From Kiritimatiellia bacterium (GTDB taxonomy: Bacteria > Verrucomicrobiota > Kiritimatiellia > RFP12 > UBA1067), in assembly GCA_045636065.1 (NCBI GenBank), contig JAZTWW010000036.1:5404-69403 (forward strand): a DNA stretch of 64,000 nt, read 5' to 3'. How positions within the stretch are numbered: position 1 is the stretch's first letter; each line of letters starts with the position of its first letter. Made by a program: the position numbers and the translations under genes. Positions 20,345 through 44,393 of this stretch are shown here, in pieces. The notes beneath the pieces are model-generated. The model had not been told where the DNA came from. It saw only the letters and a list, made by a program, of their open reading frames with translations, and searched no databases.

Positions 20345-21079
20345 TTACAGAATAGACACATACCCCAAGCCATCGTTGGAGTCTGCGGCACCTAGAACCA
20401 GATGATCCAGAAAGCCAATTTCCAAGGAACGCGCGAGGCGTCTAAGCGTTTTCGTCAATGCCACGTCCTTCTTGCTGGGCGTCGGATCGCCGCTCGGATG
20501 ATTGTGTGCGACATAGATGTAACTCGCACTCCAGCGGACAGCATCCCGGAAGACCTCCCGCGCATAGACACGTGACGAATCAACCGACCCGCGGAACAGG
20601 CAGATTGGCTCGCAAATCGGATGCTTCCGCGCGTTCAGCGGTAGCACCCAGAAGCATTCCTGTTCTTCCTGCTCAAGTGCCGCGGTCCGGAACAGGCGAT
20701 AGGCCTCCCGTGCCGATGTCACCTTCATCAGACGAACCTCTTCCGGCTCCGGCCGTGCCGCCCGATACCCCAGCTCAAACGCCGCGGCAAGTTCCAAGCA
20801 CTTCACATGCCCAAGGCCCAGGATCGGTTTCTCCTTGTGCTCGGCATTGTACTTCTCGATCCGTGCCTCGATTGTCCGCCAATCCGAAGTGACAAGCCGC
20901 TGGATGGACCCAAATGCCGCGATCAGCCGACGGGACAGTTCCATTACATCACATCCAGCCGAACCCGTGCGCAGCAGAATTGCCAATATCGCCTCCGACG
21001 GGACCGAATGCGGACTGGCCGCACGCTCCATCTGCTCGCGCGGCTTCAGTTCCCCAGACTTCTTCTTGAAATTATTCAT
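20345..21079 (-). CDS. radC: RadC-family JAB/MPN domain protein
   Basis: JAMM motif HNHPSGDPTPSKKD and an N-terminal HhH-like segment (LGLGHVKCLELAAAF). Start overlaps the hsdR stop. Confidence 0.85.
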   Translation of the reverse strand: MNNFKKKSGELKPREQMERAASPHSVPSEAILAILLRTGSAGCDVMELSRRLIAAFGSIQRLVTSDWRTIEARIEKYNAEHKEKPILGLGHVKCLELAAAFELGYRAARPEPEEVRLMKVTSAREAYRLFRTAALEQEEQECFWVLPLNARKHPICEPICLFRGSVDSSRVYAREVFRDAVRWSASYIYVAHNHPSGDPTPSKKDVALTKTLRRLARSLEIGFLDHLVLGAADSNDGLGYVSIL

Positions 21080-24000
21080 TACGCTGCAGTATCCGGCAAT
21101 GCATAGAAATAGTTGTAAACTTCTTCAAGCAACTCGTCCTGCACCTTCGGCGAAGCCAACGCATCCGGCAAATCGGCATACAGGACATTCACAATCTCCG
21201 TCCGCACATCCGCACAAGTCGATGCCTTATCCCGCCAGTTCTCGACCGTAGACACCAAGGCCCGAAGCCGCGCAAGCAGCTCTTTAGCCACGCCCTTGAC
21301 CCTCTTCAAATCTGCCTGGGACAATTTCTCCTTCGACCTCAGGATGTCAAAGACCGCCAGCTGCTGGTTATCGTCCAGCTCCTCGCGGATATACCGCGCC
21401 TGTTCCTCGGTCACATCCTTCATGAGCTTTAGCAACTCCTGCAGGGCCTTTTCAATCGCCGCCTTGTCGTGTGCCTTATTGTACTCCTCGATAATCTCCT
21501 GCAAGGCCTGATAGTAGTTCTGGCAATGGGGGTTCTGCACGACCATGGACGAAATGACGTCCTCCGCCTTCTCGGACAGCTGCTTCAGAAGGAGCTTCTT
21601 GTACTTGTAACCCTCAATTGACTTCGCCATCCGCGAGAAGTCCAGCTTGCTCAGATCAAGCGCCACCTCATCGCACTTCTCGGCAACTGACGGCAAGGCG
21701 TTCTTCACATGGTCGCCGATGGTCTGCTGCAACTCCGCGAACAACGCCGTCAGGTCGGTCTTCTCCGCCTCACGGTGGTGCTCAATGTGCGAACGAATCT
21801 CACGAATGGCGTCCCGCTTGGCGCGGATCGTATCGCTGAGCTCGTCCGAATCAATGAACTTGGCGATGTCGTCCATCTTATTCGCCACGGCAATGAACGC
21901 CCGCGCGACATTATCCGGCGACGCCACCGCGTCTGCCGCGGTCTTCAGCATCTGCGGACGCGCCATCACATCCGCATCCAGCAACGCTTTGAGCCGGAAG
22001 CCATTGTCGGACAGCAATTTCACGTCCGCCGCAATCGCCTCTTCGTAATGCTTCAAGAGTTCTTCGATCGGCGGTAGCGGATTCTTCGGCTCTCCACCCT
22101 CGCCACCGATAACGCCGGTGAAGTCGGCGAGCGCACGGCCCAACGCATCGATGAGCCCGATGTAATCGACAATCACGCCATTGCGCTTGCCCTCGAACAC
22201 CCGATTCGCCCGCGCAATTGCCTGCATGAGCGTGTGCGCCTTGAGCGGCTTGTCGAGATAGAGCGTTCCCAGACACGGCACATCAAAGCCCGTCAGCCAC
22301 ATCGCGCACACAAAGGCGACGCGGAACGGATTCTGCGCCTTCTTGAAGTCCTTCTCCAGCTCCTTGCCCGCGATGTCCCGCTTGTAGGGCTTGATGTCGA
22401 TGCCGAATTTCTTGAAATACTCGACATCCCCCTGCTCCTGACTGATGACGAGCTCCATCCGCGTCTCTTTCATCCACGCGACACGCTCCTCCAGCTCTTG
22501 CTGGCGTTCGGCCGTCCGCCGCGCCTTCTTAACGGGATCCTTCGCCGACTCGTCCAGTTCCTCGGTGTACTTCTCCCACTCCGCGATAACGGCCTTCCAC
22601 GTGCGATACGCCGCGACCTTGTTGACGCTCACGAACATGGCCTTGCCGCTCCGCCACCGCGCAGAGTAGTCCCGCACGAAGTCCTTCGCCTTGATCGCGA
22701 TGGTCTCCGGCGCCATGTAAATCATGATCTTGGACTTGATGGCGTCATCCACCCGCTTGCGGTCCTGCGGATCGAGGTCCTCCTGCTCCACCGCCTCGAT
22801 GAGCTCCTGGTTGATGGACGGCGAATCGATGCCAAGCTTGTTGACCCGCGTCTTGTAGAAGAGCGGCACGGTTGCATGGTCCTCGACCGCGCGGTTGAAG
22901 TCGTAGACGGACACATACTGCCCGAACTGCTTCTCCGTCAAGTCACCGCGCTGAAGCGGCGTTCCCGTGAACCCGATGCGCGAGGCATCCGGCAGGAACC
23001 TGAGCATGTTGTCCGCGAAGATGCCGTTGTTGGTGCGGTGCGCCTCATCGGAGAAGATGACGATCTCATGGTCAGGATGAATCGGCGTCCATGTCGAGGA
23101 ATTGAACTTGTGGATCAGCGTGAACAGGAAACGGTCGTTCCCCTCCAGCCGTTTCCGCAGCCGCTCGCCGGACGACGGCATGCACGATTTCGGAAGCGCA
23201 TCGCCGAGGCATCCGCAGCTCGCGAACGTCCCGGCAATCTGCTCGTTCAGCTCGTCGCGGTCCGTCACGATCAAGAAGGACGGCGAACCGCCCGACTTGC
23301 GCAGGATCTTTCGCGCAAGGAACACCATCGAATAGCTCTTGCCCGACCCCTGCGTGTGCCAGAAGACGCCGATCTTCCCGTTCTTCTCCTGCCGCTTCAG
23401 ATAACTCCGATAGGCATTATTCACCCCGAGATACTGGTGGTTGCGGGCGAACACCTTGAACATGTTCCCGTCGTTCGAATCGAAGAGGATGAAGTTCTCC
23501 ACCAGATCGAGGAAGTTCGCCCGCGGGCACACCCCTTCGATAAGCTTCTTCAGCGACACGACCGCCTTGTCATCCTCGGCATGGCGCTTCCACTCCCCGA
23601 AGAACTCCCAGTCACTCCCGAGCGCCCCGATGTGCGTCTCGTTGCCGTTTGAGAAGACCAGCATCGCGTTGAAGCGGAACAGCTCGGGAATCGCGGCAAG
23701 ATAGTCCTTGTAGTTCTTGTCGTATCCTTCCTTGTCCTTGTGGGACGGCTTCTTGAACTCCATGAAGAGAAGCGGCAGTCCGTTCACGAAACCGATCAGG
23801 TCGGGACGCTTCACGAATCCCGGCGCGGTCACCCACAGCTCGCGTACGCACAGGAACTCGTTGTTCGGTCCCGTCGGATCGTCGAAGTCGATCAGCTTCG
23901 CCCGCCGCTCCGCCTCGCCGTCCTCTCCGAATTCCTCATCCGTCACCTTCACGCCGTCCCGGACGAACTCATACGCCTCGGAGTTGAGCTGCATCAGCGA

Positions 24001-24258
24001 CTTTCCGTGCTCGACGGTCTTCAGTTTTTCAATCGCCTCTTCAACCTGCGCATCCGTTATCCAGTCTCCGTTGATCCGCTTGAGTGCCGCCCGCACCGAC
24101 CGCCACAGCACCGTCTCCGACTTGTCCGCCCGCCCGAGCATCCCGTTCGGTCCAAACGTCTCGGCATCATACGCCAACACGCTCGTCCACCCGACGGCCT
24201 CCATCATTTTCGCCGCGGGTTCCTGCACGATGTTTTGTTCGGAATAGGTCCAGCTCAT
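21079..24258 (-). CDS. hsdR: type I restriction enzyme, R (endonuclease/translocase) subunit
   Basis: 1,059 aa with the N-terminal nuclease region, SF2 helicase motifs (GSGKSYSMV Walker A, DEAH box [11 protein letters not shown]) and a C-terminal helical domain. Confidence 0.92.
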
Positions 24259-24262
24259 GTGC

Positions 24263-25468
24263 TCACACCTCGATTTCCCCGCTCATCAACTTCGGCAACA
24301 GCCGATCCCGCGCCTCGGTGAGCGTACGGATTTGGCTGCGCATCGTTTGAATCTGTAAAGTCATATTACCAAGAACAGTAAATAACTTACTATCAAAATC
24401 ACCCAATTGAATTTCGGAGTCAAGGAATTCGTCAAAGGCAAAATTATTGATGCCGTTTGCACCCGCGTTTTTAAACACCTTCATTTTCCCTGACGACTGC
24501 AAATACTTGATATGCCATGCCAAAACAATTGACATTTGATTGTCTATCGGGCGCATGAACTTACAAAAGCTTGCGCATATCACAACATCATCAAACCAAG
24601 ATAACATATCATCCGAGACAAGCAAACTTCTTCCAATGTTATCGATATTACCATTTGACAACTCAATGATTATATCCCCACTAATTAATCGTTTGGTCTC
24701 TATATCATGCTTAGAATGAACTCTCAAAGGAATAGAGCTCTTGTTACCATACGATAAATCGTCAATATCAGTTCCTCGAATAACGTAACCACATTCGGTA
24801 AACTTGCCAATACTATTTTCTTTACCCCATCCCCCATTGGCATAATGGCGCAAAATCTCCCAAATCCTCTTCTTCTCCCCCTTGCCATCCTTGAACCATT
24901 CGCGATAGAGGCGCATGGCGGCCTCTTCCAGAAGCGCGATCTGCTTGCGGCAATTCGCAATCGCCGAATCGTAGTCGGAGAGTATCGCGACAATTTGCGA
25001 CCTTACATTCTTCTCCGGCACAGGGATCTCTAAATTCCGCAATTGATCAAGTGATATGTATTGCTGACTTGACCCTCGAAAATTACCGCGCAGAGCACCC
25101 TGTCCCATTGGGCTCGTCAAATAATAATAAAGCCATTTCGCTTTTTCCTCATCCCCGGACATTTTAAACAATGCAATATTCTTAATGGCATAATCGGGAT
25201 CATCCTTAACAATGGCACATTCCCCAACCGTGCCAATCATCGTCATCAGAATATCCCAGCGATCAACTTTGCTTCTCTCGTTGATCTTCCTATAATCTTT
25301 TTCTGAAATCAAATAAGCATCTTCAACCCGAACAACACCCTGCTTCACAACCTTTGATGTCACTAGCGGCTTTCCTCCACCCTCTACAGATTTGGGGCTA
25401 TCGTGCGTTCCATCGCGAACAGAAGCACAAAATTCAGCCGCCTTTTGCAAAACCCACTTGCTCATCAC
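24263..25468 (-). CDS. hsdS: type I R-M specificity subunit
   Basis: Two target-recognition domains separated by a conserved central repeat. Very AT-rich DNA relative to its surroundings. Sits between the regulator and hsdR with 4-nt spacing or overlaps. Confidence 0.85.
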
Positions 25469-27222
25469 CGCGCCTCCCCGACGAGATGGTAGCCACCAGT
25501 CTTCTTGCTGCCGCGGTGCTCGACCTTTCCGGCCGCGATCAATGCGGCAAGGGCTCGCTCAACAGTGGCCTTGCTCTTGCCAACGCGCAAGACAATCTCC
25601 GGCTTGTTAATTCCCGGTCGCGATTTTATCGCCTCATTTATCGCCTCATTTATCGCCTCAGGGGATTTTATCGCCTCACCCTTTTGGCCAGTTTTTCGAT
25701 AAGGCATCTGCTTGTCGTTACGCGACTGTATGATCTTGGCCTCTCGCAAGGTCGACAAAGCATTGTTGATGGTACGCAAGGCCATCCCCGTCCTCGCGCA
25801 AATCTGCGGAATTGTCACGCTTTTATCGGCAATAAGCTCGTGAAGCACGGTCTCAACATTCGCACGTGCATCCTTGCGAAGCTTTGGAAGACGAGCGAGC
25901 AGTTCCCCGATGTTATCCGCAGCTGTAGTGCCAATTATCGTCCAACCTGTGCCAGATAATCCGTGACCAGTGCCAGTTCTGTCCGAAGCAGTGCCAGTTC
26001 TTGCGGCAACAATGCCATTTCTTTGATCGGGCGTATTGACGCCTGTCCAATCTGGGCGCTTGAAAATGGTGGTGACACAACCGTATTCTTCTTTGACCTT
26101 TGGTACGGGCAACCCCACCCTGACACATTCATTGGCAATCCGAGTAAGCCCGCGTCCCCATGTCTCGATGGATTTGCGCAGATACAGGACGCGCGCGATT
26201 TTCTCATTCCGCGGTTCCGAATGTTGGATTGGCGGTGAATACAATCTGGCGAGGTTGAAATCTGACGGGAACTTCCCGGGGTTCTTGATTTCAACCCGGT
26301 CATCGTAGATGGCGAGGTAAATCGTTTGGCTGCGGTTTTCGTAGCTGCGATGGGCAAAGGCGTTCACCAACGCTTCGCGGAGTGCGTCCGCAGGAATCTC
26401 CAGCTCTTCGTCTCGTTCGATCTTGCCGCTCGTCCATGCCGCCAGATTCAAATGCTTGAAGCAGAAAGCCATCGCAGCGTCTATCATCTTGAAGACATTG
26501 CCCTGCACATGGGAATTGTCGAGGAACACCCGCTGATCAGTTCCCTTGAACCATCCCATCTTAATTTCGAGTTGCGGATAATCGATGCGATCCGCCTTCC
26601 CGAAAAGCACGGCGGCACCATTCAACAGAGTTCCATTCTTCCTCAGCTTGAAATGGTCGAGCAACGAGGCGGCGTTTTCGGTATCGACACTTTCATCAAG
26701 CCGCCCGACCCGCACCGCCTTTCGCGCCGTATCTCGAATGACATCCAAATCAAGATCGTCGAGCGACAGTTCCGGATTCGGCTGATCTTCCCATTCGCTC
26801 CTGAATCCACCCCTCGCAAGGAGCATCCGCTCGTACTCCTCCTGGCTCATTACAGTCGTTGAGGACTGCACACGCTTGTGCGGCTTTCCATCGTAGATAT
26901 AGGGCTTGCGGTTCCCGCCATCGACATGACACACGATGGCCGTATGCGTGTCGTCAATAGGAACATACGAAACCTCAATATCCGCCGCAGGCTCGAACTT
27001 CTGAAATGCCTCGAAAAGATCGCGCTTTGTCGTATCGGCAATCAGCTGTCCTGTCAGTCGGCCCTTGCGTGTCACGCCGAAAACAACCGTGCCTCCATCC
27101 TTGTTTAGAAACGCGCACAAAGTCTCGCAGGCGTCAACGCGCTGTCCGGTCGTTTCCTTGAATTCGACCGTCTCGCCTTCGCCCTGGGCAAGCAGAATTT
27201 GCAGTTCATCTAATGTCTTCAC
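25465..27222 (-). CDS. AlbA_2 (Schlafen-like) + HATPase_c_4 + C-terminal wHTH putative transcriptional regulator
   Basis: N-terminal ...LQILLAQGEGETVEFKETTGQ... signature of the AAA-4/AlbA_2 family. C-terminus has a GT-rich linker, an AINEAINEAIK repeat and two wHTH-like segments. Overlaps hsdM (ATGA) and hsdS (ATGA). Confidence 0.8.
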   Translation of the reverse strand: MKTLDELQILLAQGEGETVEFKETTGQRVDACETLCAFLNKDGGTVVFGVTRKGRLTGQLIADTTKRDLFEAFQKFEPAADIEVSYVPIDDTHTAIVCHVDGGNRKPYIYDGKPHKRVQSSTTVMSQEEYERMLLARGGFRSEWEDQPNPELSLDDLDLDVIRDTARKAVRVGRLDESVDTENAASLLDHFKLRKNGTLLNGAAVLFGKADRIDYPQLEIKMGWFKGTDQRVFLDNSHVQGNVFKMIDAAMAFCFKHLNLAAWTSGKIERDEELEIPADALREALVNAFAHRSYENRSQTIYLAIYDDRVEIKNPGKFPSDFNLARLYSPPIQHSEPRNEKIARVLYLRKSIETWGRGLTRIANECVRVGLPVPKVKEEYGCVTTIFKRPDWTGVNTPDQRNGIVAARTGTASDRTGTGHGLSGTGWTIIGTTAADNIGELLARLPKLRKDARANVETVLHELIADKSVTIPQICARTGMALRTINNALSTLREAKIIQSRNDKQMPYRKTGQKGEAIKSPEAINEAINEAIKSRPGINKPEIVLRVGKSKATVERALAALIAAGKVEHRGSKKTGGYHLVGEAR

Positions 27223-29021
27223 AACCCCAGCCCCTTCAAGTTCTTGTCGATGGACTTCATAAGCGCGGCAGATTCGTCTTGCAGTTTCAACAGCTCGGCG
27301 TGAATCTCCTTCATGCGCGACTTGAAATCAACCGTGTCCTTTGGCGGCGGCGGAACGCCCACGTAACTGCCGGGGTTGAGCGACCACTTCTTTGCTTCGA
27401 TGTCGGCAACCGCGGCAGATTTGCAAAGCCCGGGGGTGTCCTCGTAGGTTCCCTTTTCGCCGAACTTGGACACAAGCCAATCTCGCTCTGCGGCAAGTTC
27501 GTCGCGCTCTTTGCGGACGGCCTCGGCTTGCTCGGCTTTACGAAGAAGGTCTTTCTTCTCGTTCCGCCAACCCTTCTCCTTCGCCGCCTCGACCTTCTCT
27601 ACCTCAGCGCGGAACTTCGCCGGATCGCCTGCCGCCTTCACCTGCAAATCAAGCGCGGAAAGCGCCGCCTTGTAATCCTCCAGCAGCTTCGCGTACTTCT
27701 CCTTCTCGCCGCGCCAGAGCCAGCGGATCGCCGAGATATTCCGAATCTGCCACGGCGTCCACTCGTTGTGCGTCGTGTCGATCACATGGAAGTAATTCCG
27801 CATGTCGAGGAAAAGCACCTCGTTCTTCCGCGTCGCCGGCTTCTGCTTGTCAAAGAACCAAAGCGTACACGGCAGCGACTTCGTGAAGAAGAAGTTGTTG
27901 CCGACGCTCAGCATTGAATCGACATGTCCCGACTTGACGAGCTTCGAGCGGATCAGCTGCTCGTTGCCGTCCGCATCGGGAGCGGATGCCGCCATCACGA
28001 ATCCCGCCTTGCCGGTCGCGTTCAGGTAGGAATAGAAATACTGGATCCAAAGGTAGTTGCCGTTGGAAACGATGTCGTCCTTGTTCACGCCTGGAGAGCC
28101 GAAGACAAGCCGTGGATCGTTCAGGACCGACTTGCCCTTCAATCCGTGACAGTTGAACGGCGGATTCGCCATCACGTAGTTGCATTTGCCGCGCAGATGA
28201 TGGGCGTCATTGAAGAACGTGTTCGCGCCCTCTCCGTAGGCGATCTTCGACGGATCGAACCCGTGCACGGCCATGTTCATCAGACAGATCTTGCCGTTCG
28301 TATCCGTCTTTTCCTGTCCGAAGAACGTCAACAGCTGGTTCGCGTTCCCGCCCGACTCCGAAACGAAGTCGCCGGACGAAATGAACATGCCGCCCGATCC
28401 GCAAGCTGGATCCAGCACGATGCCCTTCTTCGGTTCCAGGAAGCTCACGATCAGCCGTACGATCGGTTTCGGCGTGAAGAACACGCCATCATCACTCGCC
28501 ACCTGCGGTGCAAAGCATCCGAGGAAGTATTCGTAGATACGCCCGAACGCGTCATCGCCCAACTTGGAAATCTTCTCGTCCGCGAAGTTCCGCAAGAGCC
28601 CACGCAGCAAGTCCGGCGTCAGCTGATTGTAGGTCTTGGGAAGAACGCCCTTCAACACCGGCATCGCATCCTCAATCGCCTTCATCGCATCATTGACCGC
28701 CTTGCAGATATCGGCATTCTCAGGGAGCCCCGTCAGATAGTCGTACCGCGCATTCTCCGGTACGAACATGGCGGACTCCTTGATGAAGTCATCCGCCCGC
28801 ACCGGCCGCGGCACTCCATTCCGACACGGCCAGTTCTTCGACTCCTTAAGCTTCTTCTCAATCAGCCGGAACCGAAACGTCGCATGCCGCAGAAATATGA
28901 TGCCCAGTACCGGCATGTAATACATCTGCGATGTGAGCGACGACTCATTTCTCAGCGAGTCCGCCGTCTCCCACAGGCTCTTCTCCAACTCATCCAACGA
29001 TGTCTGCTGTTCAGTTGTCAT
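27219..29021 (-). CDS. hsdM: type I R-M N6-adenine DNA methyltransferase subunit
   Basis: HsdM N-domain, motif I VLDPACGSGGMF, motif IV MANPPFN. Confidence 0.92.
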   Translation of the reverse strand: MTTEQQTSLDELEKSLWETADSLRNESSLTSQMYYMPVLGIIFLRHATFRFRLIEKKLKESKNWPCRNGVPRPVRADDFIKESAMFVPENARYDYLTGLPENADICKAVNDAMKAIEDAMPVLKGVLPKTYNQLTPDLLRGLLRNFADEKISKLGDDAFGRIYEYFLGCFAPQVASDDGVFFTPKPIVRLIVSFLEPKKGIVLDPACGSGGMFISSGDFVSESGGNANQLLTFFGQEKTDTNGKICLMNMAVHGFDPSKIAYGEGANTFFNDAHHLRGKCNYVMANPPFNCHGLKGKSVLNDPRLVFGSPGVNKDDIVSNGNYLWIQYFYSYLNATGKAGFVMAASAPDADGNEQLIRSKLVKSGHVDSMLSVGNNFFFTKSLPCTLWFFDKQKPATRKNEVLFLDMRNYFHVIDTTHNEWTPWQIRNISAIRWLWRGEKEKYAKLLEDYKAALSALDLQVKAAGDPAKFRAEVEKVEAAKEKGWRNEKKDLLRKAEQAEAVRKERDELAAERDWLVSKFGEKGTYEDTPGLCKSAAVADIEAKKWSLNPGSYVGVPPPPKDTVDFKSRMKEIHAELLKLQDESAALMKSIDKNLKGLGL

Positions 29022-29043
29022 TGCATCACTTTCTCAAATTTGG

Positions 29044-30702
29044 TCAACTCCAATCTCTTGGATTTATGCCATTGGCAGCAGCCGTCTTCTTGAACATTAT
29101 TTTCAACCCCGCTGTAAATCTCGCGACCGCCTGCTGATTTGATGAATCCGCGACCCAAAACCTCATCAACTCAATAAAAAAAGGTTCATACCTGCTCCAA
29201 ATCGCTTTTGTTTCAGCTCGGCGAACTCCTTCTGTACTCCTTCCCGATGCATGCAAATCACTTATCTTCCGTTCCATGGCCTCCCAATCGCTCTCAATCC
29301 TACTGAAATATGTCCGACTATAACCATTATTAGTAGCTGCAGGGGAATGCCAAAAAGTGTCTGCGCCACCATGACACAACCTCTTGCCATACTCGAATAG
29401 AAATTGCTCTGGAGATTTGTTATCACCAGGCAATACTATAAGATTGTTTGTAACATCCTGTTTTTTATCGCCATCCAAAACCGCAAAGGCAGTGGATTTC
29501 ACGGACAAGCACCCGTCTTTAAAAATCGTCTCAAGATTAGTTGCCCCAATGAAAGATCCGACGAAATGGAAATGTGTTCGCAAGTGCTCTATCCCTGATC
29601 CCCGACAGAAGATATGATCCAGCAAAACACCCAAAACGACCCTTGCCTCATCATCCTCTGCAAGCACCGGGATCTTCCGTCCCTCATACAAATCCCTGCG
29701 GGTACAATTCTTCAGATGCATCCTGATTTTAAACATATCAGGATCCGGCAATACACTTATATGATCAAGGTCGTCGATGAAGTATATAACATTGTCGCCC
29801 TTCGTCAGCACATCTTCTAGCAACGCAAGGCTATGCGTTGTACAAATGACTTGAATCTTATAGTCTGTTGCATATTTTCGCAGCAACTCGCACAGTTCAA
29901 TCTGCAAAGACGGATGAAGAGTAGCATCAAGCTCATCAATCAACAAAACGCTTTCTGTAAAACCTGTTTTAGTCGACAACTTCTCATAGTAATATCGCAG
30001 CGACACTAATGCACGCAAAATACATAATACATTATCCTCTCCCGATGAAATCGTGTTCGAATCTACACCCTGCACCGTTGTCTCAAATTCTTCACAGCAC
30101 TTCAATGATGCAACATTACTTACCACATGCTTTGCGCCCATCTCTATTCGGGTCAACCGCTTATATAGGTCCGCCAGCTCATTGTTATATTCCACAGGCA
30201 ACTGTTTTCCAACGCGTCTGGTTGCAACATCATCCGCCAGCTCTCCTCGCGGAAGCAATCGAGGCAAGCCCAAATAGATCACTGGCATCTCAGGCAACTT
30301 CTCATGGGTTCCTGGCGCATAATTTGGTTTTACCGCAAAGCGAAAATTCTGATCTGACCTGTGTCGTCTAAAATTCAAAGCCAACCCATTCTCGTAGTTG
30401 ATTGTAAACAACGTGCCCACAATACCACGCGCTGGGTCACGATATTTTTTATCGCCCCGAACCAACGATTCAATTTTGCAATTCATCCCAGCATTGATAC
30501 GGGCAATGATGCTGACACACGCGCCGTCAAGCATTCGAGGATTCGCCGACTGCTTAGCTCGCTTGTACGCATTACTAATCATATGTAAAACAGAACTTTT
30601 ACAAGTTCCGTTTGTGCCTGATATAATATTCACGCCCGGACAAAAGTCCAAATCCAAGCCCTTCAGCTTGCGATATTGCACAATTGACAATTTCGAAATC
30701 AT
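29044..30702 (-). CDS. OLD/GajA-like ABC-type ATPase with C-terminal TOPRIM-like region (solo, no helicase partner)
   Basis: Walker A GTNGTCKSS, ABC-signature-like SGEDNV, Walker B/D-loop LLIDELDATLHP, H-loop ICTTHS. The C-terminal ~200 aa has an acidic Glu motif (IPVLAEDDEARVV) and a DxD motif (AFAVLDGDKK) spaced as in TOPRIM. 552 aa matches class 1 OLD/GajA length. Confidence 0.6.
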   Translation of the reverse strand: MISKLSIVQYRKLKGLDLDFCPGVNIISGTNGTCKSSVLHMISNAYKRAKQSANPRMLDGACVSIIARINAGMNCKIESLVRGDKKYRDPARGIVGTLFTINYENGLALNFRRHRSDQNFRFAVKPNYAPGTHEKLPEMPVIYLGLPRLLPRGELADDVATRRVGKQLPVEYNNELADLYKRLTRIEMGAKHVVSNVASLKCCEEFETTVQGVDSNTISSGEDNVLCILRALVSLRYYYEKLSTKTGFTESVLLIDELDATLHPSLQIELCELLRKYATDYKIQVICTTHSLALLEDVLTKGDNVIYFIDDLDHISVLPDPDMFKIRMHLKNCTRRDLYEGRKIPVLAEDDEARVVLGVLLDHIFCRGSGIEHLRTHFHFVGSFIGATNLETIFKDGCLSVKSTAFAVLDGDKKQDVTNNLIVLPGDNKSPEQFLFEYGKRLCHGGADTFWHSPAATNNGYSRTYFSRIESDWEAMERKISDLHASGRSTEGVRRAETKAIWSRYEPFFIELMRFWVADSSNQQAVARFTAGLKIMFKKTAAANGINPRDWS

Positions 30703-30720
30703 TTCAACCTCGCTTCCTCA

Positions 30721-31590
30721 TCAGATGAAAAGTCTATCCATCCCAACACGACGAACTTCGGACATTGTAGGAATCAACTCTTTTCGCCCGAAAAACATCA
30801 CTTCTTTCCCGTTCCCATTGTTTGCCAAACTATAGTTGAGCGTAAACTTTCTGCTGGGAAGTCCCTTGTAAATCTTGCATATCTGCGGCACGTCATCATA
30901 CGAAACGATCCAAGGGCACGTAACATCTGACTTGATCTTGGCACACAAAGCCTGATGTTTCTTCTCATCAAAGAAATTCTGATACAAGTCTTTCCCCTTA
31001 CGGTAATACGGGGGGTCAAAATAGACAAAAGCGTTTGCCTCAAACTGTTTAAGCTGCCTGGAAATAAAGCTCTCCACGTCTCTGTTGAACACATGGATTT
31101 GCTTTCTCTTTCGTCCGATCGCTTCTATCTTTTTTGATAAGTCATTCTTCGGATAACGCACATCAAGTTTCCACGCGCCCTGCTCCATTCCCCCAATCGG
31201 TCCCGAAGATAAAATACCCGAATGATTTGTGCGATTCAAAAAGAAAGTCGCAAAGCCATATTCCAATGCGTATTTCTTCCCCGTCAGGTAAATCTCTCGT
31301 TGCTTCTTCCATTCATCAAGTGTGACGGGGGTACTATGAAGCATATCAATAAATGCATCATTCTCTTGTACAACAGCCTTCCAGAACGAATAAATTGCGG
31401 GATCCGAATCGTTGATCACAATTTCAGAGACAACATCACGCAAAAGCAAATCTATCGCTATTCCAGCACCTCCAGCGAACGGCTCAACATACACAGAACA
31501 ATTATCACCGGACTTGTTTACCAACAACTCAATGAGTTTGCTGATTTTATATTTTCCACCGGGATATCGTAGTGGTGACGGATTACCCAT
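30721..31590 (-). CDS. D12-class (Dam-like) N6-adenine DNA methyltransferase
   Basis: YPGGK (Dam K-WAGGK equivalent), motif I EPFAGGAGI, FFLNRTNHSG (Dam NRTxFNG region), motif IV VYFDPPYY. Confidence 0.85.
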   Translation of the reverse strand: MGNPSPLRYPGGKYKISKLIELLVNKSGDNCSVYVEPFAGGAGIAIDLLLRDVVSEIVINDSDPAIYSFWKAVVQENDAFIDMLHSTPVTLDEWKKQREIYLTGKKYALEYGFATFFLNRTNHSGILSSGPIGGMEQGAWKLDVRYPKNDLSKKIEAIGRKRKQIHVFNRDVESFISRQLKQFEANAFVYFDPPYYRKGKDLYQNFFDEKKHQALCAKIKSDVTCPWIVSYDDVPQICKIYKGLPSRKFTLNYSLANNGNGKEVMFFGRKELIPTMSEVRRVGMDRLFI

Positions 31591-32878
31591 TGCTCGCTCC
31601 CCTTTCTCTCTTGCAGTGAAGTCTTAACAGCCCGCCAACAATCAAAGACATCGCAATCGTTTGCGCAAGATTATAACTCCCCGTGTAATTATGTGCGCCC
31701 GTCTGCAACAACCCAACGATGTTGCTTTTAGTGACGGCATTTTGCGCCAAGAAAGTTTTTTGGTCCTGCGAAAGCGATGCCTTGGCATCATCAAAGCCAT
31801 TCATCACCAATGCACTCATGTCGCGAGAGGACGAACACTTTGCAATCAACTCGCACTCCAAGCGCAATGCCATACGGATAAGTGCAGGGAATCGATCCGA
31901 TAAATTGTCTTTATGCTTTTCATAGTAATTATACAAGTCCAGAATATCGCGATACAAATTTGCCGGCTCACCAACATCCAAATCTAATTTTCCGCCGAAG
32001 AGAGCCATTGACGAAGAGCCAACCCTCCTAGGCAATCGTGCAGCCTGTTGTGCATCCGTGGAGGAAACATTTAAACATTGAAAATCATCTGACTTCAAAT
32101 CAACGTCATGATATTCTTTATCTGCGTCAGCATCAACAATGGCCTTCAACTTTGGATCAATCAAAACGCAAAGCGGCTCTTTGCGCCCATTTCGCGTACT
32201 AATCCTCTTGTCTTTTACCAGAGAAAAAATGTGCTCTAACAGCCTCTGCGTATCCTTGGCATTATGCCGAGACGAGACGCGTCCCTTTTCAATCTTTATG
32301 CCGATGCTTTTCATCCTCGGATTCGTCAGCACCTCTTCGCGCACAAATCGCTGATTTAGATAACTCGTCGCCTCAACCCTTCCATCCAACATTTCATTCA
32401 ATTGCAGCAACACACTCTTGGGTTGCTTCATGAATTTATACAGGAACACATCACGCGCTATCTGATCCCACGAGCCTGTATCCGCATGTTTACGCCAAAC
32501 ACTCTCAATAGCAACATCCTCAGATGCCACACAACAAGGCAAAACCTCAGGGCAATCTGGCATCTTGAATTTCAAGTCACAAAACTCAGGATACAACCCC
32601 AACTTAAGCATCGCAAGGATTACACGCCTATTCCCATCATAAACGATTGGCGCACCATTCTTGTAAACAACCGTGGGCAATTCGCTGAAATCATAACGTG
32701 CCCCCATCTTCTTCGCGAGTTTCTTGATCTCCCACTTCTTACCCGCATCAACAAGCGCATGCCGGATGACAGTCTCATTTTTACTCCTTGACGAAATGGG
32801 GTCACGTGGATTCTCCGTCCAAAGAACCAAATCCCTGACAGGGATTTTCTCTACAGTCTGTTTTTCTTGATTATCCAT
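31583..32878 (-). CDS. ParB/Srx-fold (ParBc-like) N-terminal domain protein with ~320-aa unknown C-terminal region
   Basis: IPVRDLVLWTENPRDPI...VYDGNRRVILAMLKLG matches ParB (P..NPR...iaGeRRlrAa). The start codon overlaps the Dam gene end by 8 nt. Start set at an ATG (the track start is a TTG 4 codons upstream). Confidence 0.6.
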   Translation of the reverse strand: MDNQEKQTVEKIPVRDLVLWTENPRDPISSRSKNETVIRHALVDAGKKWEIKKLAKKMGARYDFSELPTVVYKNGAPIVYDGNRRVILAMLKLGLYPEFCDLKFKMPDCPEVLPCCVASEDVAIESVWRKHADTGSWDQIARDVFLYKFMKQPKSVLLQLNEMLDGRVEATSYLNQRFVREEVLTNPRMKSIGIKIEKGRVSSRHNAKDTQRLLEHIFSLVKDKRISTRNGRKEPLCVLIDPKLKAIVDADADKEYHDVDLKSDDFQCLNVSSTDAQQAARLPRRVGSSSMALFGGKLDLDVGEPANLYRDILDLYNYYEKHKDNLSDRFPALIRMALRLECELIAKCSSSRDMSALVMNGFDDAKASLSQDQKTFLAQNAVTKSNIVGLLQTGAHNYTGSYNLAQTIAMSLIVGGLLRLHCKRERGASNG

Positions 32879-32905
32879 ACAGTGATCCAATTATGGTGTT
32901 TATAA

Positions 32906-33475
32906 TTATAACATTTTAATGGTGGGGAGCACGAGATGATGGGCAATCTTCGCGCGAGCGAGGAACATCAAATCGACAATCCCGACGAATCGCGCTTTGA
33001 CATATTCCTGCCAGGTCTTGCCTTTGGGAAATTTTATGTTGCCCTTGCCACAGGTCGATTCCCAGCCGAACTCTGTTCCGGGATCAAACTTGACGACTTC
33101 AGCGCTGAACGGACTAGAATCAGGCTTCTTCCTCCCGAACCAAGCGACATCAACAAGGTTGTTCTGCTTGTTGCAAATCCATGACGGAGTAAAGACCTCT
33201 GAACGTTTCACCACGCGCTGACGCTGCTCCTCGGCGCTCTTGTCGACACGCGGACGGATCACGGGATTGTCCTTGTCGACAATCTGCTCTATCCGAATCT
33301 CGTCACCGGCACCGAATCCCTTGCCGCGCTCAGCATAGTCATCCGTCGCCCAAATAAGGTTTCGCCACGTCGATCGGTCTTTCAAGAGTACGGCAAGCAC
33401 TTCTTCTGGAATGTTCCATTCCAGAATGTCGCGGCCAAAGCCGCTTGTCCCCTTTGTGTTTTGCTTAATCATCAT
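32906..33475 (-). CDS. hypothetical protein (possible degenerate gamma-class MTase N-terminal fragment)
   Basis: SEVFTPSWICNKQNNLVD resembles MTase motif X (GxVyTPxxiVxxMv). KFDPGTEFGW is at most a degenerate motif I. No other motifs were found. Confidence 0.4.
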   Translation of the reverse strand: MMIKQNTKGTSGFGRDILEWNIPEEVLAVLLKDRSTWRNLIWATDDYAERGKGFGAGDEIRIEQIVDKDNPVIRPRVDKSAEEQRQRVVKRSEVFTPSWICNKQNNLVDVAWFGRKKPDSSPFSAEVVKFDPGTEFGWESTCGKGNIKFPKGKTWQEYVKARFVGIVDLMFLARAKIAHHLVLPTIKML

Positions 33476-33483
33476 TTCTAGGT

Positions 33484-33496
33484 TAATATTATACCA
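33484..33496 (-). promoter_or_regulatory. putative extended -10 (TGGTATAAT) overlapping the ORF6N stop, upstream of the 32906-33475 gene
   Basis: Minus strand caggaaTGGTATAATatt. The -10 is at plus 33488-33493, only about 12 nt before the ATG (near-leaderless). Confidence 0.35.
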
Positions 33497-34448
33497 TTCC
33501 TGTCGTTTTTACGCCCACCACAAACACTGACTTCTTGATGCGGCGAATATCGGCGGAATCTAGCTTCGTGAAGGCGAAGCACTTCTTGCCGAGGTCTTTC
33601 AGCGATGCGCCTATCAGGTAGAGTTCCTTGTCATCGACGATGAGAAAGCGGTCATGGAACGATTCATTGTAGCGAACGGAGAGCTCCGGGTATTGGGCGT
33701 TGAAGGTCTTGATATCGGCATCGGAAATCTTGCGGTGCGGCATGTGCTTCTTGTCGTAATGCTCCGACGTGAAGACCGTCACCTTCACGCCCTTGCGCTT
33801 CTTCGCGAAGAGGTCGAGCACCTCCGTCGTCGCCCAGTTGTCGATGAGCATCAGCGAACTCTTCGCTCCAGCGACCAGCTTCAGCACCAACGCCCGCGCA
33901 TCCCACAGCTGCCCGTCGTAAAACACGCCCTGAATAGGCGTTTCAGTCGCGTCAATGCGCTGCAGGATGGAATCTACTTTCGCATCCGTGGCAATCTGCC
34001 GCTTCTCCACCGCCTCGATTCGCTGAAACATCTGCGCGTTCGCAAGCAAGAACCGACGCATCGCAGAGAAGGCCCGCATAATGCGGATGTTCACTTCGAT
34101 GGCCGTAGGCGAACGGAGGACGCTGCTCAACATGGCAATACCATTTTCCGTAAAAGCGTATGGGAGCTGACGATCACCGCCCCAACTTGAGATGCCATTT
34201 TGGCATTTCAAGTTATCCCATTCTTCGGCGGACAGTCTGAACATGAAGTCCTCCGGGAATCGCTCTTCGTTGCGCTTGACCTGCCTGTTCAACGCCCCGG
34301 TCGCCACGCCATACAACCTTGCCACATCGCGATCAAGTATGACCTGCACTCCTCGAATAGGCTTGATCAACGCCTGAATGTTGCCCGTATCACTCACGAC
34401 AACAGCCTGTACTTGCTGACCGGAAATGGCATTCCCATTCTGCCTCAT
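33489..34448 (-). CDS. ORF6N (KilA-N-like) domain protein with unknown C-terminal domain
   Basis: IRGVQVILDRDVARLYGVATGALNRQVKRNEERFPEDFMFRLSAEEWDNL is a typical ORF6N/Rha-like N-domain. Start set at the ATG 34448 (AAAGGAGG RBS 5 nt upstream). Confidence 0.65.
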   Translation of the reverse strand: MRQNGNAISGQQVQAVVVSDTGNIQALIKPIRGVQVILDRDVARLYGVATGALNRQVKRNEERFPEDFMFRLSAEEWDNLKCQNGISSWGGDRQLPYAFTENGIAMLSSVLRSPTAIEVNIRIMRAFSAMRRFLLANAQMFQRIEAVEKRQIATDAKVDSILQRIDATETPIQGVFYDGQLWDARALVLKLVAGAKSSLMLIDNWATTEVLDLFAKKRKGVKVTVFTSEHYDKKHMPHRKISDADIKTFNAQYPELSVRYNESFHDRFLIVDDKELYLIGASLKDLGKKCFAFTKLDSADIRRIKKSVFVVGVKTTGMV

Positions 34449-34596
34449 GCCGCCTCCTTTACATCCGCAATCCGCTTGAGCAGCAGACAACTGGACTTAT
34501 CGCAATTTGCGACAAGTTCATACGTTTCAAGCCGCACGTCTGGCCGGACGGTCCCGTTCGGCTGGTCCACGGCAATCTGGGTTTCGCTTGCGCTCA
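34446..34596 (-). CDS. possible 49-aa upstream ORF translationally coupled (ATGA) to the ORF6N gene
   Basis: MSASETQIAVDQPNGTVRPDVRLETYELVANCDKSSCLLLKRIADVKEAA. Its stop overlaps the ORF6N start. A TTTGGTATAAT -10 lies 16 nt upstream of its ATG. Confidence 0.3.
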
Positions 34597-34604
34597 TTTG
34601 GGCT

Positions 34605-34640
34605 TTCCTTCTGGCGAATATTATACCAAATTACGCGCTA
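34605..34640 (-). promoter_or_regulatory. putative operon promoter (extended -10 TTTGGTATAAT) at the right edge of the defence island
   Basis: Minus strand aaTTTGGTATAATattcgccag. The -10 is at plus 34612-34617. It is the first promoter-like element upstream of the co-directional gene string from 34596 down to 20345. Confidence 0.45.
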
Positions 34641-42995: not shown

Positions 42996-44393
42996 TTAGA
43001 CGATCTCGAAACTCTGGCCGGGGGACGGGGCGACGGCGTGAGGGGCGCCGTGCTCCTTCAAAAGATCAACCATCGCCTTCACCTTCTCAGGCTCGCCATG
43101 GACGGCGAACGCATGCTTCACGTTGGACTTTATCCCGTCGAACCAGTCCATGAGGCCGTTGCGGTCGGCGTGGGCAGAAAGGGCGTTGATCGTATGGACG
43201 CGGGCGCGGAATGGGACGCTCTCGCCGAGGACCATCAGCGGATCGCGCCTTTCGACGACCTTGCGCCCCAAAGTGTTCTCGGCCTGGAAGCCGACTATAA
43301 GGACGATGTTCCTGGGATCAGGCACTATGTTCTTCAAATGGTGGACGACACGGCCGCCTTCGCACATTCCGCTCGCGGCTATTATCACCATGGGGCCGGG
43401 CGCGTCGTTGAGCGACATCGACTCCTGCACCGATTCCACGAACTTCAGATTCGGTACGGAAAGAGGGTCCACGCCGACCCTGAGAAGATCGCTCGCATCC
43501 TCGTTGTAGCACTCGCGGTGCTGGCGGTAGAGCCGCGTCGCCTTGAGCGAAAGCGGCGAATCGATGTAGCAGGGTATCTCGGGGATCCTGCCCGCTGCAT
43601 GCAGACGGTTCAGGTAGTAGAGAATCTGCTGCGTCCTTCCGACGCTGAAGGCCGGGATGAGCAGCTTGCCGCGCTGCTGCACGATGTCCTCGATATAGCT
43701 TTTAAGCCGCCCCGAGACATCGTCCGCGCTTGGATGCACCCTGTCGGCGTACGTGGACTCGATTATGACCGCGTCCGCGCCATCCGGGTACTCGTAGTGC
43801 CTGAGGATCGGCTGGTCTGGCTGCCCGAGGTCCCCCGAGAAGACGAGCCTCAGGTTCCGGCCCCTGTCGCCGGCGACGTCGATCTGCGTTATGGCGCTTC
43901 CGAGGATGTGCCCGGCGTTGTGGAACATCGCCGTGACGCCGCGCCCGAGATCTATGACGCGCTTCATCGGCTCCGGGCGCATAAGGCTCATGAGAAGGTC
44001 GACGTCGTTCTCCTCGTAGAGCGGCTCGAAGAGATGCTTGCCCTGCGCCTTGCGCTTCTTGTTTATGTACTCCAGATCGCGCATCTGCAGGAAGCAGCTG
44101 TCCCGCAGGAGGACGCCGCACAGGTCGGCCGTAGCAGGCCTCGCGTAGACGGGGCCGCGATAGCCCCGCCTCACGAGCTGCGGAAGATTCCCCGCGTGGT
44201 CAATGTGGGCGTGCGAGAGGACTACCGCATCGATGGATCTCGGATCGACGGGAAGGTTCCTGTTGATCTCGAAAGCCTGCTTGCGGTGGCCCTGGTAGAG
44301 TCCGCAGTCTAGAAGAATGCGCACTCCGTTCGCCTCGACGAGGTGCATGGATCCCGTCGTGGTCTCGGCCGCCCCCATGAACGTCACGCGCAT
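42996..44393 (-). CDS. MBL-fold metallo-hydrolase with beta-CASP/RNA-metabolising domain (RNase J/CPSF-like)
   Basis: HAHIDHAGNLP metallo-beta-lactamase motif, downstream beta-CASP-like His/Asp motifs. 465 aa. Confidence 0.75.
   Translation of the reverse strand: MRVTFMGAAETTTGSMHLVEANGVRILLDCGLYQGHRKQAFEINRNLPVDPRSIDAVVLSHAHIDHAGNLPQLVRRGYRGPVYARPATADLCGVLLRDSCFLQMRDLEYINKKRKAQGKHLFEPLYEENDVDLLMSLMRPEPMKRVIDLGRGVTAMFHNAGHILGSAITQIDVAGDRGRNLRLVFSGDLGQPDQPILRHYEYPDGADAVIIESTYADRVHPSADDVSGRLKSYIEDIVQQRGKLLIPAFSVGRTQQILYYLNRLHAAGRIPEIPCYIDSPLSLKATRLYRQHRECYNEDASDLLRVGVDPLSVPNLKFVESVQESMSLNDAPGPMVIIAASGMCEGGRVVHHLKNIVPDPRNIVLIVGFQAENTLGRKVVERRDPLMVLGESVPFRARVHTINALSAHADRNGLMDWFDGIKSNVKHAFAVHGEPEKVKAMVDLLKEHGAPHAVAPSPGQSFEIV

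Follow-up and report, generated by a model that had tools for sequence, protein, structure and literature searches.

A probable layered defence island upstream of a Kiritimatiellia type I restriction–modification operon carries a PD-lambda-5-type pair together with an OLD-type ATPase

Introduction

Genes that are packed head to tail on one strand invite the assumption that their products act together. Such a case is found in a 64,000-nucleotide stretch of contig JAZTWW010000036.1 (assembly GCA_045636065.1, Kiritimatiellia bacterium), referred to in the following as the window: A tiny open reading frame (ORF), an ORF6N protein gene, a 189-aa ORF, and genes for a ParB-like protein, a D12 methyltransferase (MTase), and an OLD-type ABC ATPase run directly into hsdM of a type I restriction–modification (R-M) operon (Table 1). 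Do these genes constitute one system? A first-pass annotation of the DNA considered either a novel multi-component defence or abortive-infection module or a captured phage fragment. Our analysis points, with a probability of roughly 70%, to a different answer, namely a stratified defence island of four layers instead of a single operon-system. Its layers would be a candidate defence gene of the PDC-S05 type that encodes the ORF6N-PLD protein, a scar left by two gene remnants, a horizontally mobile cassette of 3.9 kb in which a PD-lambda-5-type pair has merged with an OLD-type ABC ATPase/TOPRIM-like nuclease, and the type I R-M operon with its AlbA_2 and RadC passengers. What had been proposed as a multi-component module thus persists in reduced form: A conserved multi-gene core exists, but only the three genes between 29.0 and 32.9 kb travel together.

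Results and Discussion

A divergent PD-lambda-5-type pair

Protein families were assigned by Pfam, PADLOC, and NCBIfam profile searches of the window ORFs, which bore out the earlier domain calls for the ORF6N protein, the D12 MTase, the ABC ATPase, and the type I R-M genes. The MTase matches the PADLOC model PD-Lambda-5_B (PDLC04018) with an E-value of 7.7e-106 (residues 3–280 on profile positions 4–282 of 291), next to Pfam MethyltransfD12 (E 1e-21) and PADLOC MTase_II PDLC03358 (E 2e-81). PD-lambda-5 is annotated as "ParB/HEPN, methyltransferase" in the supplement of Vassallo et al. (2022, Nat Microbiol; PMC9519451); the same study describes it as a compacted "RM+Abi" system, which was cloned in an mrr-deleted host, and broad anti-phage protection has been demonstrated only for the E. 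coli ECOR7 system (PMC9519451).

The relationship of the ParB-like protein to the A component is more distant: Its best PD-Lambda-5_A model, PDLC04007, is matched at E 6e-9 over residues 14–97 only, whereas bona fide phage A proteins match the PD-Lambda-5_A profiles over their full length with E-values of 1e-90 to 1e-147. Pfam and NCBIfam searches at permissive thresholds as well as a PDB sequence search with the ParB/HEPN profile returned nothing useful. A signal emerged from the comparison of whole families by hhalign, for which the canonical PD-lambda-5_A alignment was built from the A+B pairs of Paracoccus phage Pkon1 and a Pseudomonas phage: The window family aligns to it with a probability of 98.7% (E 2e-16) over 312 columns, which reach from the ParB domain through the middle domain into the beginning of the C-terminal domain. 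This worked family against family only; hhalign of the window family against one single phage PD-lambda-5_A sequence gave no signal. Both the ParB/Srx fold and the HEPN fold are present in the window protein, and they follow each other in the same order as in PD-lambda-5_A. Judged by these alignments, the ParB/HEPN protein and its MTase are a divergent PD-lambda-5 pair.

The pair is held together over large evolutionary distances. Within a sample of 80 distant genomes from many phyla, the ParB/HEPN gene is immediately followed by a D12 MTase gene in about 73–77, the range reflecting the adjacency rule, and stop and start codons usually overlap. This is the PD-lambda-5 arrangement of two adjacent, co-directional genes, ParB/HEPN first and D12 MTase second, which the window shares with an overlap of 8 nt. 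The window differs from PD-lambda-5 in three respects: Its A protein belongs to a separate, large, and divergent family (more than 1340 full-length homologues of about 415 aa without a Pfam domain, forming 340 clusters at 50% identity) that lacks the Rx4-6H motif; its cassette contains a third gene, the OLD-type ATPase, as do about 19% of the family loci; and it lies on the chromosome within an R-M operon instead of a P2-like prophage hot spot. Across 25 members of the family, R335, R339, and H396 are the invariant residues of the HEPN-like domain. Apart from the ATPase, the third genes beside the pair in the 80 genomes are heterogeneous, comprising C5 MTases, Fic, AlbA_2, McrB-like, and housekeeping genes.

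An OLD-type ATPase with a methyltransferase partner

The ATPase contains a Walker A motif (GTNGTCKS), an ABC signature (SSGEDN), a Walker B motif (LLIDELD), and a TTHS motif, and it is assigned to AAA_15/AAA_21 by Pfam. Its PADLOC matches are only generic, with E-values around 1e-17 for PtuA, the retron I-B ATPase-Toprim, AriA, and GajA. The TOPRIM tail that had been read from the sequence at first pass may be retained as a putative TOPRIM-like domain: An AlphaFold2 (AF2) model places E349 (AEDDEAR) after a strand at residues 344–348 and D410-G-D412 after a strand at residues 406–409, and the PADLOC ATPase-Toprim_I-B alignment extends through residue 416. A Pfam TOPRIM match, however, was found in none of 25 family members, and a PDB sequence search with the tail gave no match. 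The assignment is accordingly worded as TOPRIM-like, being based on motifs, predicted topology, and PADLOC alignments.

What distinguishes this ATPase is its neighbour. The family, of which more than 800 homologues share 40–47% identity with the window protein, was found on 31 prophage-like contigs and 261 stretches of metagenome DNA. In 75 of the 78 assessable metagenome loci and in all 30 assessable viral loci, the ATPase gene adjoins one for a D12 MTase of the PD-Lambda-5_B/PDLC03358 family; among the 75, the order is ATPase-then-MTase 57 times and MTase-then-ATPase 18 times. Nearly all of these loci are devoid of ParB/HEPN, and most are devoid of type I R-M genes. A bare unit of the two genes is found in Sporomusa sphaeroides and in lysogeny modules of temperate phages (the P2-like Vibrio ValB1MD-2 and Streptococcus prophages), and the pair is also present in a defence island with ThsA. 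Outside the window, the ATPase thus shows a near-obligate pairing with a D12 MTase of the same family.

No name seems to exist for this pair. The OLD-family reviews consulted distinguish a stand-alone, a helicase-linked, and a retron-linked class and contain no methylase-linked one, and no description of an OLD-Dam pair was found in the searched literature. The earlier statement that the gene combination corresponds to no named system consequently has to be divided: It holds for the ATPase–MTase pair, while MTase plus ParB-like protein correspond to PD-lambda-5 and the ORF6N protein to PDC-S05. With known OLD proteins the window ATPase shares the N-terminal OLD-type ABC ATPase with all motifs, a C-terminal domain with putative TOPRIM-like elements β1-E and β3-DxD, and a length of about 550 aa. 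Its differences concern the partner. Class 1, represented by P2 Old, has none, unlike the window family with its D12 MTase; the UvrD/PcrA-like GajB helicase of Class 2 (Gabija) is absent beside the ATPase in the window and in related loci, and GajA profiles match only at about 1e-16 over the ATPase core; the reverse transcriptase (RT) of the retron-linked Class 3 does not adjoin in the window, where non-coding RNA was not searched for. An RT-DUF1848-like gene is found upstream of the cassette in the related locus L082 and is absent in other contexts. As for PARIS, the AriA profile covers only the Walker B region (residues 232–293), the fused AriAB model only residues 249–308, and no AriB gene is present.

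One part of the ATPase stands out in nucleotide comparisons: The C-terminal ~108 aa (window 29024–29368) give no blastn alignment to the alleles of L082, L083, and L099, although hsdM and the remainder of the cassette align to these loci. The C-terminal helical domain seems to be the most variable part of the protein and may be a specificity or sensing module.

Assembly of the trio

How did the two pairs come to share one MTase? A full-length ATPase homologue with all ATPase and TOPRIM-like motifs adjoins the ParB/HEPN–MTase pair in 15 of the 80 genomes, on the upstream side in 12 and on the downstream side in 3. These loci are distributed over at least five phyla, with members in Bacteroidota, Alphaproteobacteria, Fibrobacterota, Planctomycetota, and Kiritimatiellia, and the trio is also present, with the gene order of the window, on two contigs of IMG/VR. 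In a neighbour-joining tree of MTases, that of the window is placed, together with its closest relatives, among MTases from ATPase pairs with the order MTase-then-ATPase, whereas the MTases of the other trios are placed among those of ParB pairs. Because the MTases of trios fall into two different groups, we conclude that the trio was assembled at least twice, from opposite starting points.

A Fibrobacteraceae metagenome-assembled genome (MAG) contains two tandem ATPase–ParB/HEPN units on one contig (L062:1046-8527); a D12 MTase belongs to the first unit as well, and the contig ends within the second.

Mobility of the cassette

The three genes also stand out from their surroundings in composition. 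The cassette has an overall GC content of 44%, with 43–46% for its individual genes, compared to 52–55% for the 189-aa ORF and the ORF6N-PLD gene, 57–59% for hsdM and hsdR, 57–65% for the flanks, and about 62% for the host. The closest distinct relatives of the cassette come from gut Kiritimatiellia MAGs. When the window was compared by blastn with contigs carrying near-identical proteins, the segment from about 29000 to 32917 recurred with the same ends and 85–96% nucleotide identity in at least four flanking contexts: with a RhuM-PLD gene upstream and an HNH gene downstream (L081, L084, L087), with an ORF6N-PLD gene upstream (L085, L088), with a 709-aa RT-DUF1848/PDC-S02 gene upstream and hsdM downstream (L082), and with housekeeping genes upstream and hsdM downstream (L097); L083 and L098 have the window's own arrangement. 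All copies contain the extended −10-like element TG(T/G)TATAAT (TGGTATAAT) about 27 nt before the ParB/HEPN start.

The downstream edge preserves a trace of its history. The first 22 nt of hsdM (ATGACAACAGAACAGCAGACAT) persist behind the cassette where hsdM itself is replaced by unrelated sequence (L081:12545-12600, L084, L087), and this remnant in loci without hsdM points to an hsdM-adjacent ancestor. Moreover, L099 carries an ATPase allele of only 65% identity beside an hsdM that is 98% identical, which marks the position as hypervariable. The site is a recombination hot spot just upstream of hsdM. Transposon-like ends were considered for the cassette and rejected, as there are no terminal repeats and no tRNA or integrase nearby; because terminal repeats and a recombinase are both missing, recombination by way of flanking genes of the island is the probable route by which the cassette came in. 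Close relatives (more than 85% nucleotide identity) and 1 of the 80 distant genomes are the only cases of linkage to type I R-M; ORF6N-PLD, hsdM/hsdR, and AlbA_2 are each found near the ParB/HEPN–MTase pair in only 1 of these 80.

The annotators' picture of a hitch-hiker in a type I R-M operon fits the position of the cassette directly upstream of hsdM. OLD-ABC/TOPRIM modules are known to ride in BREX and type I R-M loci, where they have been proposed to be back-up effectors (NAR 2026, PMC12839542). With such hitch-hikers (PrrC/RloC, PARIS, the Hma-embedded candidates termed HEC in PADLOC, and BREX OLD-ABC) the window shares a self-contained cassette inside or beside an R-M-type operon, and a Sporomusa homologue matches HEC-04. 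It differs from them in that the passenger brings its own MTase and is R-M-like, as opposed to an anti-restriction sensor, and in that the type I linkage is not kept beyond close relatives.

A sister cassette of two genes, coding for an ATPase-TOPRIM-like protein and a D12 MTase and having a GC content of 36%, resides inside pglX of type 1 BREX in L093–L096 (e.g., L094:4212-10482). It splits pglX into an N part of 598 aa with the MTase domain and a C part of 621–645 aa that covers PglX profile positions 621–1173; start/stop overlaps of 8 nt and 4 nt are present, and RhuM and PglZ genes follow. The ATPase of this cassette (P0253) occurs on more than 57 contigs, which makes the split BREX common in gut metagenomes.

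The ORF6N-PLD gene and the scar

Upstream of the cassette, the ORF6N protein matches Pfam ORF6N with an E-value of 2.8e-32 and PLDc_2 weakly (E 0.004). The PADLOC model PDC-S05 (PDLC04869) is matched at E 8.3e-109 with residues 29–317 on profile positions 8–295 of 306; by this full-length match the protein is a candidate single-gene defence. Such an end-to-end profile match is what the window protein has in common with PDC-S05, and RhuM-headed paralogues match other PDC-S05 models. PDC-S05 is itself a computational candidate that offers no phenotype or mechanism for comparison. The PLD-like motif of the window protein reads H-D-R-x4-D (FHDRFLIVDD) in place of the usual HxK-x4-D. Head exchange is seen among sister loci, where either ORF6N or RhuM stands N-terminally of C-terminal domains that are otherwise about 80% identical.

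In L081 and L084–L088, the cassette is immediately preceded by a paralogue with an ORF6N or RhuM head. Where these sister loci have the PDC-S05-type gene adjoining the cassette, the window has a scar of 597 bp in between, a segment that blastn did not find in L081, L084–L088, and L097. The scar contains the 189-aa ORF, which had been listed as an unknown gene. Its product matches PADLOC MTase_II PDLC03390 (E 2e-35) at profile positions 6–146 of 327 only, and it corresponds to the first ~165 codons of an N6-adenine MTase of about 671 aa with an NPPY motif, joined to a foreign 3′ end of about 88 nt; a full-length homologue of 671 aa with NPPY is encoded by L149:3362-5377. The ~88 nt are the 3′ end of the 709-aa RT-DUF1848/PDC-S02 gene of the L082 type, which is intact in L082 and matched by window positions 32918–33003 (blastn). 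That the 189-aa ORF as a whole might be a remnant of the 709-aa gene was ruled out at the protein level, only this 3′ end being shared. From its truncated alignment the ORF is read as the dead 5′ stump of an MTase gene, a pseudogene. Composed of remnants of two genes, the scar testifies to cassettes having been exchanged repeatedly at this position.

In a Kiritimatiellaeota MAG (L001:1791-16095), ParB/HEPN–MTase is preceded by four tandem ORF6N- or RhuM-headed PDC-S05-like paralogues and followed by an AAA_5 (McrB-like) gene and two genes for C5 cytosine MTases; the R-M and defence genes of this array are densely packed, and the ATPase is missing from it.

A proposed mechanism and its alternatives

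Taken as a mechanism, the combination of genes in the cassette would work as follows. The MTase would mark host DNA at a short adenine motif, and two independent effectors would attack unmarked invading DNA, the same mark protecting the host from both. The ParB-domain protein may nick or bind DNA, with its HEPN-like domain serving as an abortive back-up at the RNA level; the ATP-driven OLD-type nuclease may nick or degrade DNA. Two effectors that depend on one methylase would be harder to escape by means of a single anti-restriction protein. The PD-lambda-5 type of the pair is already known; new are the ATPase as a recurrent third partner and, as far as we could find, the unnamed ATPase–MTase pair. 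Beyond the window, and with somewhat less than an even chance in our estimation, ATPase and MTase could represent a widespread, unnamed, R-M-like "methylase-linked OLD class" whose restriction arm would be an ATP-driven OLD nuclease. The window would then show a higher-order form of it, one methylase licensing two unrelated effectors in a combination assembled at least twice, and the low-GC cassettes would preferentially land at methylase or R-M genes, be it upstream of hsdM or inside the BREX pglX of a common gut bacterium with the two halves translationally coupled.

Should this hold, one MTase gating two unrelated nucleases would amount to layered innate immunity built on a single self-mark, and a methylase-linked context would be added to the OLD family, whose stand-alone members remain poorly understood. 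With the current PADLOC models, the PD-lambda-5-like A protein of this large family would probably go unnoticed, and no model exists for the ATPase–MTase pair; many defence islands are therefore likely to be under-annotated. The near-identical cassette in varied flanks, the hsdM stump, and the sister cassette that splits pglX provide a concrete case of cassette exchange at R-M loci.

Several observations weigh against the layered island with its merged cassette. About 80% of the ParB/HEPN–MTase modules have no ATPase, which could be an independent neighbour that merely shares the niche, and the methylation-gated logic that we ascribe to the ATPase is read from gene adjacency only. The canonical HEPN motif Rx4-6H is absent, as no R lies within 4–6 residues of H in the alignment of 25 members. 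The PADLOC PD-Lambda-5_A models reach only the first ~85 residues of the window A protein, and standard tools would probably not call the locus PD-lambda-5. Finally, the mobility of the cassette has to be reconciled with the finding of neither direct nor inverted terminal repeats, no recombinase within it, and no integrase or tRNA nearby.

These points have to be set against what other readings can account for. If the tiny ORF, the ORF6N protein, the 189-aa ORF, the ParB-fold protein, the MTase, and the ATPase formed one novel defence or abortive-infection system driven from the promoter at 34.6 kb, their common strand, their short gaps and overlaps, and the lack of a terminator-like site between them would be explained, as would the ORF6N- or RhuM-headed PLD genes found immediately ahead of the cassette in several close relatives and within 1.5 kb in the Kiritimatiellaeota locus L001. 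Such a system would, however, have to include a truncated MTase stump in a scar that sister loci lack, and a tiny ORF that is not conserved. Moreover, the upstream neighbour of the cassette changes from RhuM-PLD to ORF6N-PLD, the 709-aa RT-DUF1848/PDC-S02 gene, or housekeeping genes, an ORF6N-PLD gene is near the pair in only 1/80 distant genomes, and the cassette edge is marked by a GC step and a separate promoter-like site. We regard a single system as very unlikely. The five- to six-gene block is variable in relatives and its genes belong to described systems, largely the outcome that the first-pass annotation had itself named as speaking against its proposal. An even smaller likelihood attaches to its second suggestion, a captured phage fragment, taken here to mean that Dam, the ParB-like nuclease, and KilA-N/ORF6N are prophage remnants transcribed by the R-M operon and devoid of a defence role. 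The ORF6N domain is common in phage anti-repressors, and a few temperate phages (Vibrio ValB1MD-2, Streptococcus Javan640/645 and phiGBSVK-D, Paracoccus Pkon1, and a Pseudomonas phage) carry related ATPase–MTase or canonical PD-lambda-5 pairs at the positions of morons or in lysogeny modules. Nevertheless, the ParB/HEPN family is without a match in 50,697 phage records and 72,556 plasmid records and has 3 matches among 2.9 million viral contigs (IMG/VR), compared to 7 phage records with the ATPase and 22 with the MTase; where examined, the latter two have lysogeny or regulatory genes (CI/Cox or cI/integrase) as neighbours, not structural genes. Between 19.4 and 34.7 kb no integrase, structural gene, or att-like repeat was found, and the three cassette genes are intact, conserve their catalytic motifs, and are kept as a unit across phyla. 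The phage occurrences fit defence cargo that is occasionally carried by phages, not a decayed prophage at the window locus.

A somewhat larger likelihood attaches to the possibility that the ATPase is a stand-alone guard, Class-1 OLD-like or PARIS-like, which senses anti-restriction directed against the type I R-M system, so that the adjacency of the MTase is incidental and PD-lambda-5 just another neighbour. It draws on the precedent of OLD-ABC/TOPRIM passengers in type I R-M and BREX loci (PMC12839542), on the ATPase gene lying directly upstream of hsdM in the window, L082, L083, and L097–L099, and on the partial PADLOC matches to AriA, PtuA, and GajA at about 1e-17. Yet the adjacency of the D12 MTase (75/78 and 30/30) is far tighter than the linkage to hsdM, which is seen in close relatives only; ATPase and MTase form a bare unit in Sporomusa and in phage lysogeny modules; and an AriB/DUF4435, GajB helicase, or retron RT partner is missing. 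We consider a stand-alone guard improbable and favour the stratified island, in which the ATPase would belong with the MTase.

Gene string, transcription signals, and the type I R-M operon

Table 1. Features of the defence island, with positions in the window.
Feature	Position	Strand	Remarks
50-aa ORF	34445–34597	−	ATGA overlap of its stop with the start of the ORF6N gene; a leader or a doubtful gene
ORF6N protein	33489–34448	−	KilA-N-like with C-terminal PLD-like domain; PADLOC PDC-S05 candidate
189-aa ORF	32906–33475	−	probable remnant of a truncated NPPY MTase
Recombination scar, 597 bp	32918–33514	−	absent from sister loci (blastn)
ParB/HEPN protein	31583–32878	−	ParB/Srx-fold N-domain (DGNRR), middle domain, HEPN-like helical C-domain; putative divergent PD-lambda-5_A
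D12 MTase	30721–31590	−	N6-adenine class; FxGxG and DPPY in the translation; PD-lambda-5_B
ABC ATPase	29044–30702	−	OLD-type, TOPRIM-like domain, C-terminal helical domain
Cassette, 3.9 kb, low GC	~29000–32917	−	three genes and own promoter-like site
hsdM	27219–29021	−	MTase_I, E 7e-228
AlbA_2/HATPase_c_4/winged helix-turn-helix gene	25465–27222	−	profile searches; between hsdM and hsdS, overlapping stops/starts
hsdS	24263–25468	−	two target recognition domains; Specificity_I, residues 2–401 on profile positions 1–421 of 440
hsdR	21079–24258	−	TIGR00348, E 3.5e-132
radC	20345–21079	−	passenger of the type I R-M operon
Promoter-like TTTGGTATAAT, extended −10	34620–34630	−	read from sequence; precedes the tiny ORF and ORF6N gene
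Promoter-like TGTTATAAT, extended −10	32905–32913	−	junction alignment; ~27 nt before the ParB/HEPN start

All ORFs of the string from 34.6 to 20.3 kb lie tightly packed on the minus strand, and the head-to-tail arrangement into hsdM was confirmed with its coordinates, including the ATGA overlap at 34448–34445 and the 8-nt overlap of the ParB-like stop with the MTase start (31583–31590). The remaining intergenic gaps are 13, 27 (15 with a TTG start), 18, and 22 nt; they are short as had been described, although one exceeds the 13–22 nt given earlier. The most likely start of the ORF6N protein is ATG 34448 (319 aa), not an upstream TTG, and that of the ParB-like protein is ATG 32878 (431 aa). 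The tiny ORF is present, with 50 instead of the reported 49 aa; it has no Pfam, PADLOC, or NCBIfam match and no tblastn match in about 200 related loci, so that its conservation is not demonstrated.

A promoter at ~34.61 kb had been taken as the origin of one transcript. The site itself, TTTGGTATAAT at 34630–34620, was found again in the sequence, but it was not listed by a scan for −35/−10 consensus promoters, which listed a weaker site at 32919–32890 that overlaps TGTTATAAT. The scans are not above chance: 15 promoter-like sites face an expectation of 10.4 ± 2.8, and 10 terminator-like sites one of 14.6; none of the latter lies between genes. Since the ParB-like gene is preceded by a promoter-like site of its own, TGTTATAAT, a single transcript from 34.6 kb is not required.

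The neighbouring type I R-M system has, by profile match, an intact hsdM, an hsdS with two target recognition domains, and an hsdR; the operon with its AlbA_2 and RadC passengers is apparently intact. The GC content of hsdS is 44%, against 57–59% for hsdM and hsdR, and only a stretch of ~120–150 nt and the extreme 3′ end of hsdS align to sister loci by blastn, a pattern that fits swapping of target recognition domains. Outside the island, an ORF for a β-CASP/MBL-fold nuclease at window positions 42996–44393 has type VII CRISPR Cas14 as its best NCBIfam match (388 bits); as this score is far below the cut-off of 800 bits, the product is probably an ordinary housekeeping enzyme of the RNase J/CPSF-like kind.

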